A stretch of 41,211 nucleotides of DNA from an archaeon (GCA_035289125.1 DATDXW010000064.1:1-41211), one strand, 5' to 3'; positions 1,152-25,617 are shown, counted from the first letter of the stretch. Notes: generated from the sequence alone by a model not told the origin. A program made the numbers and translations.

Positions 1152-1453
1152 GGGTGGCTTTCGGGGCGCGGGTTGTAAAGACTAGAAAGGACTTTTCATC
1201 GGTGAATTTTGACGGGACGGGTTGGTCTTCGATTTTATTACGAGGAATTCAAAGATTCCTCGTATACACAAAGACTTTCCATGGAAAGTCTTTGTTGTAC
1301 TTGTTTTGGCGTTTTCGCCAAAATCAAATCGGCAGAGCCGATTTGAAACTTGTCGTTCCGTTACGAAGCGCACTAACCCGCCCTTATCTCTCTACCGCAC
1401 TGCACTTCGTGCATCCAGTTGCGACAGGTGACTTTCAGTATGCGGCTTATAAA
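1152..1453 (+). repeat. mosaic of intergenic modules (P and Q blocks) shared with 13784-13825, 19291-19594 and 25412-25468
   Basis: P copies GGTGGCTTTCGGGGCGCGGGTTGTAAAG (1152-1180) and GGTGACTTTCAGTATGCGGCTTATAAA (1427-1453). Q copy GAAAGGACTTTTCATCGGTGAATTTTGACGGGACGGGTT (1184-1222). Confidence 0.75.
1239..1345. repeat. array of four consecutive perfect hairpins or palindromes
   Basis: H1 1239-1264 (10-bp stem). H2 1268-1295 (28-bp perfect palindrome ACAAAGACTTTCCATGGAAAGTCTTTGT). H3 1304-1323 (8-bp stem, TTTT loop). H4 1325-1345 (9-bp stem, AGA loop). Confidence 0.85.
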
Positions 1454-1487
1454 TCCTATTTATAAGACAACATCAATATATTGACTT

Positions 1488-13722: not shown

Positions 13723-13783
13723 CGGTCGTTTCTCATTGGCTTCCCTTCCTCTGTGACGAAAGCATACAAGAGGCATTGTGAAA

Positions 13784-13825
13784 GTGACTTTCCGTGCTCG
13801 TGGGTCGTCTTTGGCTTTACTTATT
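13784..13825 (+). repeat. copy of the intergenic P/Q module next to tRNA-Arg
   Basis: In GTGACTTTCCGTGCTCGTGGGTCGTCTTTGGCTTTACTTATT the tail GGGTCGTCTTTGGCTTTACTTATT matches 19393-19416 (GGTTCGTCTTCGGTTTTACTTGTT) at about 20/24. The head matches the GGTGACTTTCGGTG block. Confidence 0.6.
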
Positions 13826-13852: not shown

Positions 13853-13962
13853 TGGGCGTGACGCGATTCGAACGCGCGACCCCCTGCTAACCTTTTCGGA
13901 AGCGGCAAAACCTTTTTCCGAATTAGAAGGCAGGTGCTCTATCCAAGCTGAGCTACACACCC
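13853..13962 (-). tRNA. tRNA-Arg (anticodon TCT) with a 35-nt intron at the canonical 37/38 position (intron about 13889-13923)
   Basis: Reverse complement: GGGTGTG TA GCTC AGCTTGGATA GAGC A CCTGC CTTCTA [ATTCGGAAAAAGGTTTTGCCGCTTCCGAAAAGGTT] A GCAGG GGGTC GCGCG TTCGAAT CGCGT CACGCCC A. All four stems pair. The anticodon region can pair with the intron 3' part (CCUUCU with GAAAAGG). Confidence 0.85.
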
Positions 13963-19192: not shown

Positions 19193-19290
19193 GAAACAAG
19201 ACTCTTTTCTAGCGACTTGCCGGAAAGAAGATACGATTATTTTTGCTCCCACGGGTCGTGTGATTTATTTGTGAAATCTGATATAAACTA

Positions 19291-19594
19291 CCCGCCACAC
19301 GATGTATGGCGCACAGCTGTGCGTCTTGGTAGCGGGCGTTATGAAAGGGAAAGGAAAGGACTCTCACGCATGGTTCGGCTTTTGACGGAGCAGGTTCGTC
19401 TTCGGTTTTACTTGTTGCGGTTTGGTTGGGGAATGGCACATTAACCCGCTCCTTGTCTCATTCACCTGCTAAAGCAGGTGACTTTCGGTGTGCGGGTTAT
19501 AAAAGAACGGACGAACCCGCTCTTGCCTCCCAGTTGTGTGTGCATGACGCACCAGCAACGCCGCTTCGGTGGTTTTCAGTGTGCGGGTTATAAT
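19291..19594 (+). repeat. tandem array of three stem-closed units, each ending in GCGGG(C)TTATRAA, plus one Q block
   Basis: Unit 0: CCCGC 19291-19295 / GCGGG 19332-19336 around palindrome CGCACAGCTGTGCG (19310-19323). Q block 19353-19396. Unit 1: AACCCGC 19443-19449 / GCGGGTT 19492-19498 around hairpin CACCTGC-TAAA-GCAGGTG. Unit 2: AACCCGC 19514-19520 / GCGGGTT 19583-19589 around CCGC-TTCG-GTGG. Confidence 0.8.
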
Positions 19595-22957: not shown

Positions 22958-23030
22958 CGCCCATGAGGAGACAGTAATAAAATATGTGCCCATTAAACGA
23001 ATATTTATTCGCGTAATAGTTGTTAGTGAA

Positions 23031-23044
23031 ATTGATTTTGGGCG
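23031..23044 (+). repeat. left copy of the 14-bp perfect inverted repeat TTGATTTTGGGCGC bracketing the HIT-like gene
   Basis: Its exact reverse complement occurs at 23512-23525. Confidence 0.9.
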
Positions 23045-23087
23045 CTAAGAGGAATATTTTATATACTATTATGATTCTATTAATTGT

Positions 23088-23510
23088 ATGAAGAAAAAAG
23101 ATTGTGTCTTTTGCAATTTTAAAGACAAGGAAGTTCTATTTTATGAAGACCGTTTATGCTATGCAGTCATAAGTAAAAATCCTATAAACAAATATCATGT
23201 ATTAATTATTCCTAAAGAGCACTACCAAGAGTTTGTAGAACTTCCTGACGAACTCGCTTCGCACATCTTTCTTGTTGCCAAAAAGATTTCTAAAGCTGTT
23301 AGGAAAGCATGCAACCCTGATGCAATATCACATCTTTTTGATGATGATACTTCGAAGAGCGGTTATAATCTGGTTGCACATTACAAGTTTCATATCATTC
23401 CTCGATTCAAGAAAGATATGCCTCTGATTGACTGGAGTCCATTAAGAACAGATGAAAGTAGCGAAGCTCGTTCTAAATATGCAAAAGACATTAAGAAATA
23501 TTTGAAGTGA
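23088..23510 (+). CDS. HIT-superfamily-like protein with an atypical H-x-K-x-H motif
   Basis: CVFCNF...NKYHVLIIPKEH...NLVAHYKFHIIPR. Strongly AT-rich. Own TATA-like TTTTATATAC at about 23057-23066. Confidence 0.8.
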   Translation: MKKKDCVFCNFKDKEVLFYEDRLCYAVISKNPINKYHVLIIPKEHYQEFVELPDELASHIFLVAKKISKAVRKACNPDAISHLFDDDTSKSGYNLVAHYKFHIIPRFKKDMPLIDWSPLRTDESSEARSKYAKDIKKYLK

Positions 23511-23511
23511 C

Positions 23512-23525
23512 GCGCCCAAAATCAA
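23512..23525 (-). repeat. right (inverted) copy of TTGATTTTGGGCGC
   Basis: The plus strand reads GCGCCCAAAATCAA and begins 2 nt after the HIT-like stop codon. Confidence 0.9.
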
Positions 23526-23579
23526 CTCAAGCCACGCTGCGCTCTCGTTCCGCTTCGCTCCACTCGGGTCACTTAACAA

Positions 23580-23659
23580 GGGATATACGGTTCGGGGCTC
23601 GGCTCGCCCCTCACCCAAATTTTTCTTCCGCTACGCTCCAGAAAAACTTCGTATATCCC
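23580..23659 (+). repeat. 80-nt element able to form a three-way junction
   Basis: Closing inverted repeat GGGATATACG (23580-23589) / CGTATATCCC (23650-23659). Inner hairpins GGGGC-TCGGCTC-GCCCC (23594-23610) and TTTTTCT-N13-AGAAAAA (23620-23646). Confidence 0.7.
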
Positions 23660-23723
23660 TGACGTTATATTCAATTGTCGGCAGAAATATTACGAGGGGG
23701 TCGGCTCGCTCTAATTTGGTTTT

Positions 23724-23984
23724 TTAATCTCCCTTACTTTGAAGAGCATAAGGTTCAAACATTAGAATGTAAGTATCTTCTTCGCTTGTGGGACAATGCT
23801 CTATTCTATAATCGCCAACGCGGACTCTGAATATTTTCTCTTTTCTGTTGACTACTCTCTTGACATCACTTGGGAAAGGGTCATGCGTTAGCTTTTCTAT
23901 TTCTTCAACAATTCGCTTTGCGATTTGTTTTTCAGTCTTCTTTAGAAATTTTCTGGCTTGAGAAGAAAATTCAACAACAAACAT
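23724..23984 (-). CDS. RelE/ParE-superfamily toxin-like protein
   Basis: From the internal ATG: MFVVEFSSQARKFLKKTEKQIAKRIVEEIEKLTHDPFPSDVKRV...IFRVRVGDYRI...TYILMFEP, which matches the archaeal RelE pattern (…R.R.GDYR…). Confidence 0.72.
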   Translation of the reverse strand: MFVVEFSSQARKFLKKTEKQIAKRIVEEIEKLTHDPFPSDVKRVVNRKEKIFRVRVGDYRIEHCPTSEEDTYILMFEPYALQSKGD

Positions 23985-23985
23985 T

Positions 23986-24189
23986 TCATAACCCCAACTC
24001 CTTTTTGAGTTCGGAAAGTGGGTTCGTTTTTCCTTCTTTGAGTTCCCGCATACTTTGTTCAAATCGCCTACTTCCCTCTGTAGTCATTATCGTATCTGGA
24101 TCAAACATGTGCTTTTTAATGAATACGACTTCTTTCCTTAATTCCTTTAGCTCATCGTATATTCTTTAAACGGTAGTTATTTCTGCCAT
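23986..24189 (-). pseudogene. cognate antitoxin-like gene with an in-frame TAA at codon 8 (24166-24168)
   Basis: MAEITTV*RIYDELKELRKEVVFIKKHMFDPDTIMTTEGSRRFEQSMRELKEGKTNPLSELKKELGL*. Its stop lies 1 nt before the toxin ATG. The next in-frame ATG would leave only 40 aa. Confidence 0.55.
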
Positions 24190-24392
24190 AATACCTCTTT
24201 TGCGGTATCTTTATTTAAGTCTAACGGCGGCTTAATGACGGATTTCTGAACTCTTCGCTTCCTCGGAAGCTTGTTTTTGGCAATACTTCAATTTAGCCTT
24301 CAGACATTTTACGCCAAAAAGGACTTAACACGAATGTTACGGCTTACTTCGTGCGCCCATGTCCGCCTTTGGCGAACATCGCAAAATCCGAT

Positions 24393-24421
24393 ACGTTATA
24401 TGACATTGGGGTTCGGGCTCT
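24393..24421 (+). repeat. cassette-boundary motif copy (ACGTTATATGACATTGGGGTTCGGGCTCT)
   Basis: 25/29 identical to 24613-24641. Related to 23662-23712. Confidence 0.8.
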
Positions 24422-24612
24422 AACTGACTGTTAATTATCTACAAAAATAGAATAAACCTCTTATCGTTTAGCGACAAAGTGATTTTTTCCCACATCTACC
24501 GCGTTTTTTTCGGCCATCTTCTTTTTGAATGCTGCCGGGCGATCTATGATTTCTCCAGTTTCACTTACAAAGATATCACCCAAATTCCTGCTGGAACTTC
24601 TCAAAGTCTCGG

Positions 24613-24641
24613 ACGTTGTATGACGTCGGGTTTCGGGCTCT
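24613..24641 (+). repeat. cassette-boundary motif copy (ACGTTGTATGACGTCGGGTTTCGGGCTCT)
   Basis: Contains GTCGGGTTTCGGGC (24625-24638). An inverted copy (13/14) lies at 25205-25218. Confidence 0.8.
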
Positions 24642-24647
24642 CCTCCT

Positions 24648-25133
24648 TTACCAGAAAAAGTGGCATTGAGTATAGCCGGGTCTCCATCGATAAGAACCGA
24701 AACTTCTGTGTCCTTGAGAGGGGGTTACTTTCAAATAATCTCTTTGAGCCATAATACTTTTCCACTCTCTAGCTATTTCTTCCAGTGAAGAAATAGTATA
24801 ACCTATATGTTCAGGAATCGGAGGTATCCCTTCTCTATGTGGAAAATCTGTAACACATATCTGGGTACTCCCAGCACCACAACCTACAAGACTTTTAAGA
24901 TACTGGTTGGGAACGTAGAGCAAACCTGATTTGCCAGCCGATACGAATCGTCTACCCGGGTGATACGCCTCTATATGCGGCATTACTTCAGCACCCAGAT
25001 GATAGTATTCTGCGGGATCTCTAGGGATTCTAACTTCTATTACATCAGAAATATTTTCCAGTCCATCTAATAATTTCCCTAATACCTCATCCCAAGCATG
25101 TGTTCTACGTTGCTCTTCTGTCAACGTGGTCAT
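24648..25133 (-). CDS. hypothetical protein, probably frameshifted (coding signal continues to 24461 in another frame)
   Basis: 161-codon ORF. Downstream of a C5 run (24720-24724), a second frame stays open for 87 more codons to TAA at 24461-24463. Confidence 0.55.
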   Translation of the reverse strand: MTTLTEEQRRTHAWDEVLGKLLDGLENISDVIEVRIPRDPAEYYHLGAEVMPHIEAYHPGRRFVSAGKSGLLYVPNQYLKSLVGCGAGSTQICVTDFPHREGIPPIPEHIGYTISSLEEIAREWKSIMAQRDYLKVTPSQGHRSFGSYRWRPGYTQCHFFW

Positions 25134-25204
25134 AATTTATCTCCATATCTTTCTTCTGCTTTTTGCTATTACTTCCATACATAAGTATTTAATAATTTTT
25201 CGGC

Positions 25205-25218
25205 GCCCGAAACCCAAC
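25205..25218 (-). repeat. inverted copy of the boundary motif (GTTGGGTTTCGGGC on the minus strand)
   Basis: The plus strand reads GCCCGAAACCCAAC inside the near-palindrome TTTCGGCGCCCGAAA. Confidence 0.8.
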
Positions 25219-25251
25219 GCTTCGCAATTACCTTTGTGATTGATAAGTATA

Positions 25252-25292
25252 GTAAACTGCGTAATTTGTGTGACATACATTACGCAGTTTAC
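25252..25292. repeat. 14-bp perfect inverted repeat GTAAACTGCGTAAT / ATTACGCAGTTTAC with a 13-nt spacer
   Basis: Arms at 25252-25265 and 25279-25292. Nearby are GTGACATA/TATGTCAC (25269-25276 / 25313-25320) and repeated CGCAGTT words. Confidence 0.85.
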
Positions 25293-25370
25293 ATATAGAC
25301 AACTGCTAATAATATGTCACCTAAGTTTCGCAGTTATCTATAATTGCTCTATCTCGACAATATTTCAAAT

Positions 25371-25545
25371 ATAGGATACGATGCATTCGCAGAATGCGGG
25401 CGTTAGTAAAGGAACGGAGAAAGACTTCCTACGCACGGTTCGGTTTTTGACGGTGCGGGTTGTAAAAGCATAATATGGGATACGATTCACGAATGAAATG
25501 AGTGAAGGGTATTGGCATACGACGCATTCGAAGAATGCGGGGTAT
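25371..25545 (+). repeat. three hairpin boxes (c0, c1, c2) plus a Q/P block upstream of the rpl1 TATA box
   Basis: c0 25371-25402 (GCATTC-GCA-GAATGC). Q/P block 25417-25468 (27/31 to 19366-19396). c1 25470-25512 (ATAC-GA-TTCAC...GTGAA-GG-GTAT). c2 25511-25545 (ATAC-GA-CGCATTC-GAA-GAATGCG-GG-GTAT). Confidence 0.8.
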
Positions 25546-25555
25546 ATTTATATAC
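25543..25555 (+). promoter_or_regulatory. TATA box (TATATTTATATAC) for the rpl1-rplP0-rpl12 unit
   Basis: About 65-75 nt upstream of the rpl1 ATG. The predicted leader carries a hairpin (25562-25592) and an AGGAGG Shine-Dalgarno element at 25604-25609. Confidence 0.45.
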
Positions 25556-25617
25556 TTTACGGCGATACGTAGTAAAGTCCGTATACTGTCGCGCTTCTGC
25601 GGCAGGAGGACGTTTGT

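Follow-up and report, generated by a model that had tools for sequence, protein, structure and literature searches.

Modular hairpin repeats of a groundwater aenigmatarchaeon as probable non-autonomous derivatives of an IS200/IS605-family insertion sequence

Repeat arrays in the intergenic regions of the window

The DNA analysed here, a stretch of 41,211 nt referred to as the window, is contig C64 of genome bin G000 (770 kb in 72 contigs, 50% G+C), whose host is a groundwater member of the Aenigmatarchaeota. The genes for tRNA-Asn and tRNA-Phe (701-1046) are 196 nt apart in G000, and the space between them is filled by hairpin cassettes of a 'G...T' type; in the related genomes G004 and G002 the spacing is 2 nt, and tRNA-Asn carries an extra insert near the D region. 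The spacer that follows tRNA-Phe contains a repeat array and ends at ORF 1488-2087, whose native TATA box (CCTATTTATAAG, 1455-1466, plus strand) lies 21 nt 5' of the ATG and outside the repeats.

The array begins with P block 1 (1153-1179, minus strand), which consists of TTTAC (reverse complement of 1175-1179) followed by AACCCGCGCCCC GAAAG and CCACC..., i.e. the outer part of what is interpreted below as a transposon left end (LE); its inner half (~1085-1152) is degenerate, with a remnant of a hairpin module named F1. Q block 1 (1185-1239, minus strand) is an internal core module composed of Q5 (GAAAGGACT, 1185-1206) and Q3 (TTTTGACGG..TTTTATT, 1207-1239). Four perfect hairpins, which serve as linker modules, stand back to back at 1240-1344 (1240-1263, H1 at 1268-1295, 1304-1323 and 1326-1344; fold z = -8.4), and one of them, H1, is present in ~19 copies in the G000 genome. 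The linker module X (CGTTCCGTTACGAAGCGCAC, 1354-1373, minus strand), which precedes P units at 5 loci, leads into P unit 2 (1374-1453, minus strand). This unit is a complete LE with the word TTTAT (reverse complement of 1449-1453), the stem arms GCGGCTT (1442-1448) and AACCCGC (1375-1381), a guide AAAG (reverse complement of CTTT at 1432-1435) and a variable hairpin at ~1401-1413.

A further group of modules, again on the minus strand, occupies the spacer between an FKBP gene and a mini-gene. It starts with an S unit (19283-19347, element boundary at 19283), which reads as a right end (RE): ...AACG CCCGCTAC, an inserted hairpin H2, GTGGCGGG, TAG and TTTAT. The core module Q block 2 (19353-19413) and a linker W (19420-19439) are followed by P unit 3 (19441-19503), a canonical LE with TTTAT, AACCCGC ACACC GAAAG, the hairpin TCACCTGC TTTA GCAGGTGA, and ATGAGACAAGGA GCGGGTT. 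A second LE stands in tandem with it (P unit 4, 19513-19594); here a guide AAAA is paired with the word TTAT, the upper region contains other hairpin modules, and the end lies ~20 nt from the stop codon of the convergent mini-gene. At 25419-25466 (minus strand) there is a solo Q-type LE, a Q/P hybrid of the form TTTAC, AACCCGC ACCGTC AAAAA CCGAACC.... A diverged Q-like fragment (13780-13822, minus strand) adjoins an intron-bearing tRNA gene (13853-13962, minus strand) of 110 nt, which has an intron-sized insert, scores 52 bits in Rfam and was missed by ARAGORN in bacterial mode. Upstream of the L11/L1 operon lies an AT-rich island of 2.6 kb (22958-25600), and the syntenic G004 has only ~78 nt at this place.

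The original prediction, that these intergenic regions share a modular repeat family of P and Q blocks, is borne out by the window. The P consensus was found with 0 mismatches at 1153-1178, 1427-1452, 19477-19502 and 19568-19593, always on the plus strand, with 0 matches expected by chance (100 dinucleotide shuffles), and a repeat search of the window also recovered these blocks, as family D1. The site at 25437-25468 is the hybrid that had been described, with a Q-like 5' half fused to GCGGGTTGTAAA; this hybrid (repeat family D13) matches 19354-19396 at 79% over 43 nt. The complete 3' half of the Q block was matched at 1207-1239 and 19380-19412 (0 expected). Of the two other proposed Q copies, the one at 25419-25461 is only partial and the one at 13780-13822 is no more than a diverged Q-like piece. 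The predicted fold was also recovered: AACCCGC at 1375-1381 faces GCGGCTT at 1442-1448 with a single C-C mismatch, and the P unit folds into a stem-loop in which an internal loop separates the lower stem AACCCGC/GCGGGTT from the variable hairpin above it.

A relaxed P pattern occurs at 48 sites in G000, a few of which are chance matches, and 45 of the 48 are intergenic. The copies are found in either orientation (relative to the next gene, 22 same and 19 opposite), and the P end is often 1-60 nt from a start or stop codon. An association of the host regions with tRNA, translation and division genes had been proposed; on the genome scale ~45 copies lie on at least 30 contigs, beside genes of all kinds, and the association does not hold. 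With at most 1 mismatch allowed, the P pattern was found 26 times in G000, 12 times in G003, 4 times in G001 and twice in G002, and was absent from G004 and from 36 other genomes of the family or order. The family is thus genus-limited (4 of 5 congeners, 0 of 36 other genomes). A wider scan of contigs with a degenerate pattern returned mostly chance matches, and the confirmed ones were all Aenigmatarchaeota records.

The module order is fixed: A5...S3 (the S unit) is followed by Q5...Q3, then by optional hairpins (H1 and others) with linker W or X, and finally by P5...P3 (the P unit), with the interchangeable hairpins H2 and F1 located within the S and P units. Pairs of copies are identical as far as the ...GCGGGTTGTAAA end and diverge thereafter. 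In total, ~88 arrays or fragments make up ~8.1 kb, or ~1% of the G000 genome, and 20 of them contain both S-type and P-type modules. The composites are 83-486 bp long and contain no credible ORF.

Insertions and their transposase-bearing relatives

Comparison with G004 (93% complete, 8 contigs), which is syntenic with the whole window and contains no P match, indicates that the repeats are insertions. The spacer after tRNA-Phe measures 440 nt in G000 versus ~45 nt in G004, where the next ORF stands behind its own TATA box. At the 19.3-kb site the spacer from the FKBP gene to the mini-gene is ~430 nt in the window versus ~100 nt in G004, i.e. ~300 nt are missing there. The TATA box of ORF 1488 is exactly 21 nt 5' of the ATG, as it is in G004 and G002, and as this native element has been kept at a conserved distance, the P end just upstream is not the promoter of the gene. 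The stop of the aIF5A gene, AAGTAA, is host sequence conserved in G002 and G004, and a G000 element begins exactly there. Elements are missing at the orthologous sites in G004 and G002. The loci differ in G003, where comparison with G000 yielded no clean empty site, and for the gene-less copies in general no clean empty/filled pair emerged.

Near-identical copies occur on contigs C17 and C39 of G000. The array at 1047-1487 is present in all ten public contigs of the population that were examined, at an identity of at least 99.7%, and is therefore fixed in this population. As the array at 1047-1453 consists of two left ends and no right end, its copies are probably immobile fossils, and the mobility of the window's own copies is doubtful in general.

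The G000 bin itself gave no match to Y1_Tnp, TnpB (PF07282) or IS110 and contains no tnpA coding sequence; a link to TnpB and omega-RNA and an origin from IS110 were both rejected on the basis of these searches of the genome. A search for Y1_Tnp across the genus found matches in G001 and G002. Contig C25 of G001 has the order S unit (1-40), tnpA (155 aa, minus strand, 39-503) and P unit (638-698). Its product is recognized by the IS200/IS605 transposase model NF033573 (103 bits, cut-off 55) and by Pfam Y1_Tnp PF01797 (E = 1.8e-26), has the HUH (HVH) and GYFYRTVG motifs, and matches the solved TnpA proteins of Sulfolobus, ISDra2 and ISHp608 (PDB 2ec2, 2f4f, 2xm3, 2a6m). As tnpA is placed exactly between these two units, P is the left end and S the right end when read on the transposase strand.

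Homologues of the G001 TnpA are common on contigs of ~1 kb, some of them named from Aenigmatarchaeota, Nanoarchaeota and Woesearchaeota. Both ends are covered by metagenome contigs for another four TnpA types (P0001-P0003 and P0008), and for P0004 the contig covers the right end only. These elements share one general layout (the slash marks the element boundary): TTTAG/AACCCGC..GAAAC followed by the hairpin (L187, L203-206), TTTAA/ACCCCGC..AAATC followed by the hairpin (L188-190), or TTTAG/TGCTCGCGC..AGAAC followed by the hairpin (L191-200), and the right end of all of them terminates in GTTTAC. The P0002 element reads TTTAG/AACCCGCACATCGAAAC, hairpin CCACCCGC TTTA GCGGGTGG, ATGAGGCAAGGGCGGGTT..., tnpA, ...CGCCCGCCAC TTCA GTGGCGGGATTATTTAC, and the P0003 element reads TTTAA/ACCCCGCACAATAAATC, hairpin TCCCCGC TTTA GCGGGGA..., with ...AACGCCCGCCAC TTTA GTGGCGGGTAGTTT at the other end. 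The P0008 element was found on ten contigs with at least 6 different left flanks as TTTAG/TGCTCGCGCCGCAAGAAC, hairpin CCTGTGCGC TTCA GCGCACAG..., ending in ...GTAGTTTAC. In both G001:C25 and L187-L207 a P-type LE lies upstream and an S-type RE downstream of tnpA; the two ends differ, stand in direct orientation and have no terminal inverted repeats. The left flank of the autonomous relatives always ends in TTTAG or TTTAA, with one TTCAG, and the sequence after the right end differs from the word in all flanks seen. These relatives insert 3' of a specific word of 4-5 nt and do not duplicate the target.

The P0008 element (L191-L200) comes from the same samples as G000. It always follows TTTAG (once TTCAG), and its left flanks, which precede the TGCTCGCGC... 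left end, are AT-rich; it probably resides in another organism of the community.

An autonomous copy can also be traced to the genome of the window. Contig C17 of G000 ends with ...AAATTTAA/ACCCCGC..., a hairpin, ...TTATAAAGG...GGAAT, which is a left end extending up to the 'AT' of the tnpA start codon. The public contig L201, from the same sample series as the window's contigs (ANAN16-1 records), is 100% identical to C17:10686-10804 and runs on through tnpA (P0004, which shares 79% identity with the G001 protein) and the right end into ...GTAGTTTAC/ACTTATTTCATCGCAG.... From the contig end and the public contig taken together we infer an autonomous copy in G000; tnpA is missing from the bin because the assembly breaks within the IS, and these elements are likewise the reason for assembly breaks at such places. 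The flank after the right end in L201 corresponds to G000:C28:16422-16473, where the bin has the empty sequence AAATTTAA/ACTTATTTCATCGC. The empty AAATTTAA/ACTTATTTC in C28 versus the filled RE/ACTTATTTC in L201 places the insertion 3' of TTTAA, and the empty site ends in the predicted word; the left junction of this insertion did not turn up when the metagenomes were scanned for it. The autonomous element is polymorphic in the population. Its LE hairpin differs in sequence from those of the P units, and it uses TTTAA with AAAT.

The G000 composites match the IS at its ends only (87% over 60 nt for the LE and 97% over 31 nt for the RE), and neither the composites nor Q have detectable homology to the IS interior. 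Among the P/S elements the LE is closest to the G001-type IS and the RE to the IS of G000 itself. We consider it very probable that the P/Q family comprises non-autonomous derivatives (PATEs) and solo ends of an IS200/IS605-family insertion sequence. That the P/Q repeats are selfish DNA of this already known kind is well supported, and this reading accounts for the greater part of the unusually long intergenic spacers, rich in hairpins, of a streamlined DPANN genome.

Pairing of guide and target word

In IS608, TnpA cleaves after TTAC, 19 nt 5' of the foot of the left hairpin; the TTAC is recognized through pairing with a guide AAAG just 5' of the foot, with the right word placed 10 nt beyond the right hairpin on its 3' side (PMC3201880). 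The canonical LE of the P family reads TTTAC/AACCCGCACACC GAAAG followed by the hairpin, i.e. TTAC, 17 nt to the foot and a guide AAAG, and the right end has AACG just 5' of its hairpin and the terminus TAGTTTAC.

The guide and the word covary. For copies from G000, G001, G002 and G003 we scored the complement of guide position 4 together with the complement of word position 4 and obtained (C,G) 30, (T,A) 18, (C,A) 6 and (T,G) 8 (Fisher p = 4.7e-5; p = 0.0097 in G000 alone), values which overstate independence because the copies are related. The pair is non-complementary in 14 of the ~62 clear copies. G001 contributes (G,C) three times, its autonomous copy included, and the P0003-type element contributes TTAA with AAAT, so that all four Watson-Crick combinations of word and guide are found.

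In an alignment of ten LEs, 99.4% of the cells are paired and 7 of the 16 pairs change on both sides; none of 500 shuffles was as good, and no slid register came near. The word/guide pair in these ends is CG, AU, GC, UA and, once, UG, with a two-sided change in 6 of the 10 ends, and the lower stem changes from A-U to C-G at one position. As the original prediction required of its stem, the AACCCGC/GCGGGTT pairing covaries among the related elements, becoming ACCCCGC/GCGGGGT and, by eye, TGCTCGCGC/GCGCGAGCA in the third IS type. This covariation emerges only when the sister IS types are compared, and within the G000 copies alone there are one-sided changes and no covariation. All one-sided stem changes in the ten aligned ends are G-T wobbles on the top strand, an asymmetry that is weak over all copies.

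These data suggest that the cleavage word is recognized by guide pairing in the P left ends as well. At the last position of the target word the sister elements show every one of the four bases, always together with the guide base that pairs with it, and this small natural series parallels the retargeting of IS608 by engineering.

The transposase-sense (top) strand of a full element is the minus strand of the window, with the target word TTTAC in the flank. The LE, i.e. the P unit, comprises a 7-bp stem arm AACCCGC, 5 nt, the guide GAAAG, a hairpin presumably bound by TnpA, ATGAGACAAGG and the other arm GCGGGTT; linker hairpins and the Q core follow, and the RE, i.e. the S unit, consists of the guide AACG, the hairpin CCCGCCAC-TTTA-GTGGCGGG, TAG and the terminal word TTTAC. 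A putative peel-and-paste pathway can be outlined on the model of IS608: a Y1 (HUH) TnpA supplied in trans would bind both hairpins on single-stranded DNA, cut after the guide-paired words, release the element as a single-stranded circle and insert this circle on the 3' side of a matching TTTAC-type word. The P and S hairpins are most plausibly structures of single-stranded DNA to which a Y1 transposase binds.

As the RE terminates in the target word, a copy appears to lie between two 5-bp repeats, and a new copy can insert beside an older one, which fits the tandem arrays. The copies in G000 are indeed flanked by (G/A)TAAA on both sides, resembling a 5-bp duplication. The Q block may be a fossil left end: judged by eye, it shares AACCYGC...AAAAG with the left end, Q block 1 looks like a decayed LE (GAACCYGC..AAAAG) that lacks a cleavage word and a hairpin, and the copy at 25419-25466 is a Q-type end with an intact TTTAC.

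Alternative readings and known systems

The P end GCGGGTT(A/G)TAAA had been proposed to be a portable BRE/TATA promoter for a downstream gene or a small RNA. About one third of the copies do end in TTATAAA, several P ends lie 9-40 nt 5' of a start codon, and IS ends often carry outward promoters. However, ~2/3 of the copies have TTGTAAA, the orientation towards the downstream gene is almost evenly split, the copies at 19441-19594 lie between convergent genes and face the 3' end of one, ORF 1488 has retained its ancestral TATA box, and G004 has the same gene order over the window without the elements. We find a promoter function most improbable. In reverse complement, the TT(A/G)TAAA end gives the 5-nt target and cleavage word (TTTAC or TTTAT) of an IS200/IS605 left end. 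GTAAA and ATAAA words are found at stop codons and TATA boxes, which is why P ends border on gene ends and promoters and resemble a TATA box. There is similarly very little chance that the units encode small structured RNAs of 55-75 nt with a variable hairpin, and an RNA product of 60-90 nt is not supported, even though folding is predicted to be strong (z = -8.4 and -2.4) and compensatory changes keep the stems. No Rfam family was matched at the gathering threshold, the window yielding only four tRNAs; no conserved promoter or terminator accompanies the units, whose orientation is unbiased; and wobble and mismatch changes are about equal in the lower stem over all copies. Moreover, the units are physically the ends of TnpA-bearing elements, and the key covariation joins a loop base to a flank base, which fits recognition of a DNA cleavage site and not an RNA helix.

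Two other systems combine hairpins with a dedicated enzyme. REP/BIME-type repeats served by a domesticated RAYT involve the same enzyme superfamily (Y1 HUH) and form mosaics of short tagged hairpins, and 'RayT' is the name given to homologues in some database entries. We nevertheless hold this explanation to be highly unlikely: the protein reaches only 23 bits with the RAYT model NF047646 (cut-off 80) and passes the IS200 model, the gene lies between two different ends in direct orientation and not between inverted REPs, the TnpA element itself occurs in multiple copies at sites with many different flanks, and the GTAG/CGTC tag as defined for REPs (PMC3733652) is absent. The hairpins might also be taken for attC-like recombination sites of an integron-like cassette system, given a conserved base with a variable terminal structure, AAC...GTT at the stem base and an AT-rich accessory island adjoining the 25.4-kb copy. 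The probability of this is next to nil: as read from the sequence, the R''/R' boxes deviate from RYYYAAC/GTTRRRY and lack complementarity to each other, the AAC/GTT pair lies at the outer and not the inner end of the stem, and it is a Y1 transposase gene that the units flank. The genome yielded no integron-type integrase, and its only Phage_integrase match (tyrosine recombinase, PF00589) is an open frame of just 142 aa on another contig (G000:C36:689-1021). Reading the repeats as PATEs averts their annotation as promoters, small RNAs or attC sites.

Three further candidates were rejected. A TIR-type MITE mobilized by a DDE enzyme would have terminal inverted repeats matching a DDE transposon and a target duplication of variable sequence, and here nothing beyond ACCCGC is common to the two ends. 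The DDE transposase on contig C52, the only DDE_Tnp_1 gene and a pseudogene, has unrelated ends. An H/ACA-type guide RNA was rejected by eye because the 'pocket' sequences are identical in all copies. The C52 gene (IS4/IS5-like; G000:C52:3113-4078, L148 860-2106) is AT-rich and decayed, with an in-frame TAG and a frameshift, and intact relatives of it are present in G004 and G002.

PATEs were described in Haloquadratum walsbyi and other haloarchaea (Dyall-Smith et al. 2011, PMC3119063). Like them, the elements of G000 are too short to encode a transposase, have no terminal inverted repeats, contain near-terminal palindromes related to IS605-type transposons and a conserved short terminal/target oligonucleotide, and have a longer distance from boundary to palindrome at the 5' than at the 3' end; they also far outnumber the autonomous elements and contain other small repeats within the palindromes (PMC3119063). 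By the definition given there (PMC3119063) they are PATEs, target duplication being a point that is settled only for the autonomous relatives. In contrast to the haloarchaeal PATEs, they are found in a DPANN host (Aenigmatarchaeota) with a genome of ~0.8 Mb, their parent is of the IS200 type, with tnpA only and no TnpB detected, their cores are mosaics of interchangeable hairpin modules and the Q block, and an extra lower stem in the left end closes the whole unit.

With IS608 of Helicobacter pylori and ISDra2, both structurally studied (PMC3201880), the parent elements share a Y1 HUH TnpA and subterminal hairpins. The left-flank word TTAC (at 17 nt here and 19 nt in IS608), the guide AAAG immediately 5' of the foot, a right cleavage word a few nt 3' of the right hairpin and the matching of word and guide by base pairing are as in IS608. 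The differences are that the right word is here identical to the target word (TTTAC), so that insertions mimic a 5-bp duplication, whereas the right word of IS608 is TCAA; that TTAT, TTAG and TTAA, each with its matching guide, are the words of the sister elements; and that, unlike IS608 and ISDra2, this clade has no tnpB and is known from sequence alone. The REP/BIME repeats of bacteria with their RAYT (PMC3733652, PMC3333891) are likewise intergenic hairpin mosaics related to Y1-recognized ends. Here, by contrast, the enzyme is of the IS200 type, the units measure 60-380 bp and have two distinct ends, there is no GTAG/CGTC tag, and the transposase element is itself mobile and multi-copy.

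The small hairpins H2 (GACGCAC-N4-GTGCGTC; ~27 copies in G000, in the window e.g. 19309-19326) and F1 (GACAGCGAAGCTGTCATACAGC; ~22 copies in G000) sit within the hairpin loops of the IS200-type ends and also within those of the unrelated 'G...T' cassette family. We tentatively raise the idea, which we regard as rather unlikely, that such short perfect hairpins form a second mobile layer that replaces or enters the TnpA-binding loops of both ends and targets IS200-type palindromes, as does Haloquadratum SMR-A. If so, H2 and F1 would act as hyper-parasites or as a host means of disabling transposon ends.

A second, unrelated IS200-type tnpA with hairpins of its own is present in G001 (L165, G001:C67, 1460-2715). 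It is followed by a small antitoxin-like gene and a PIN-like gene, and right after these stands a P-type PATE.
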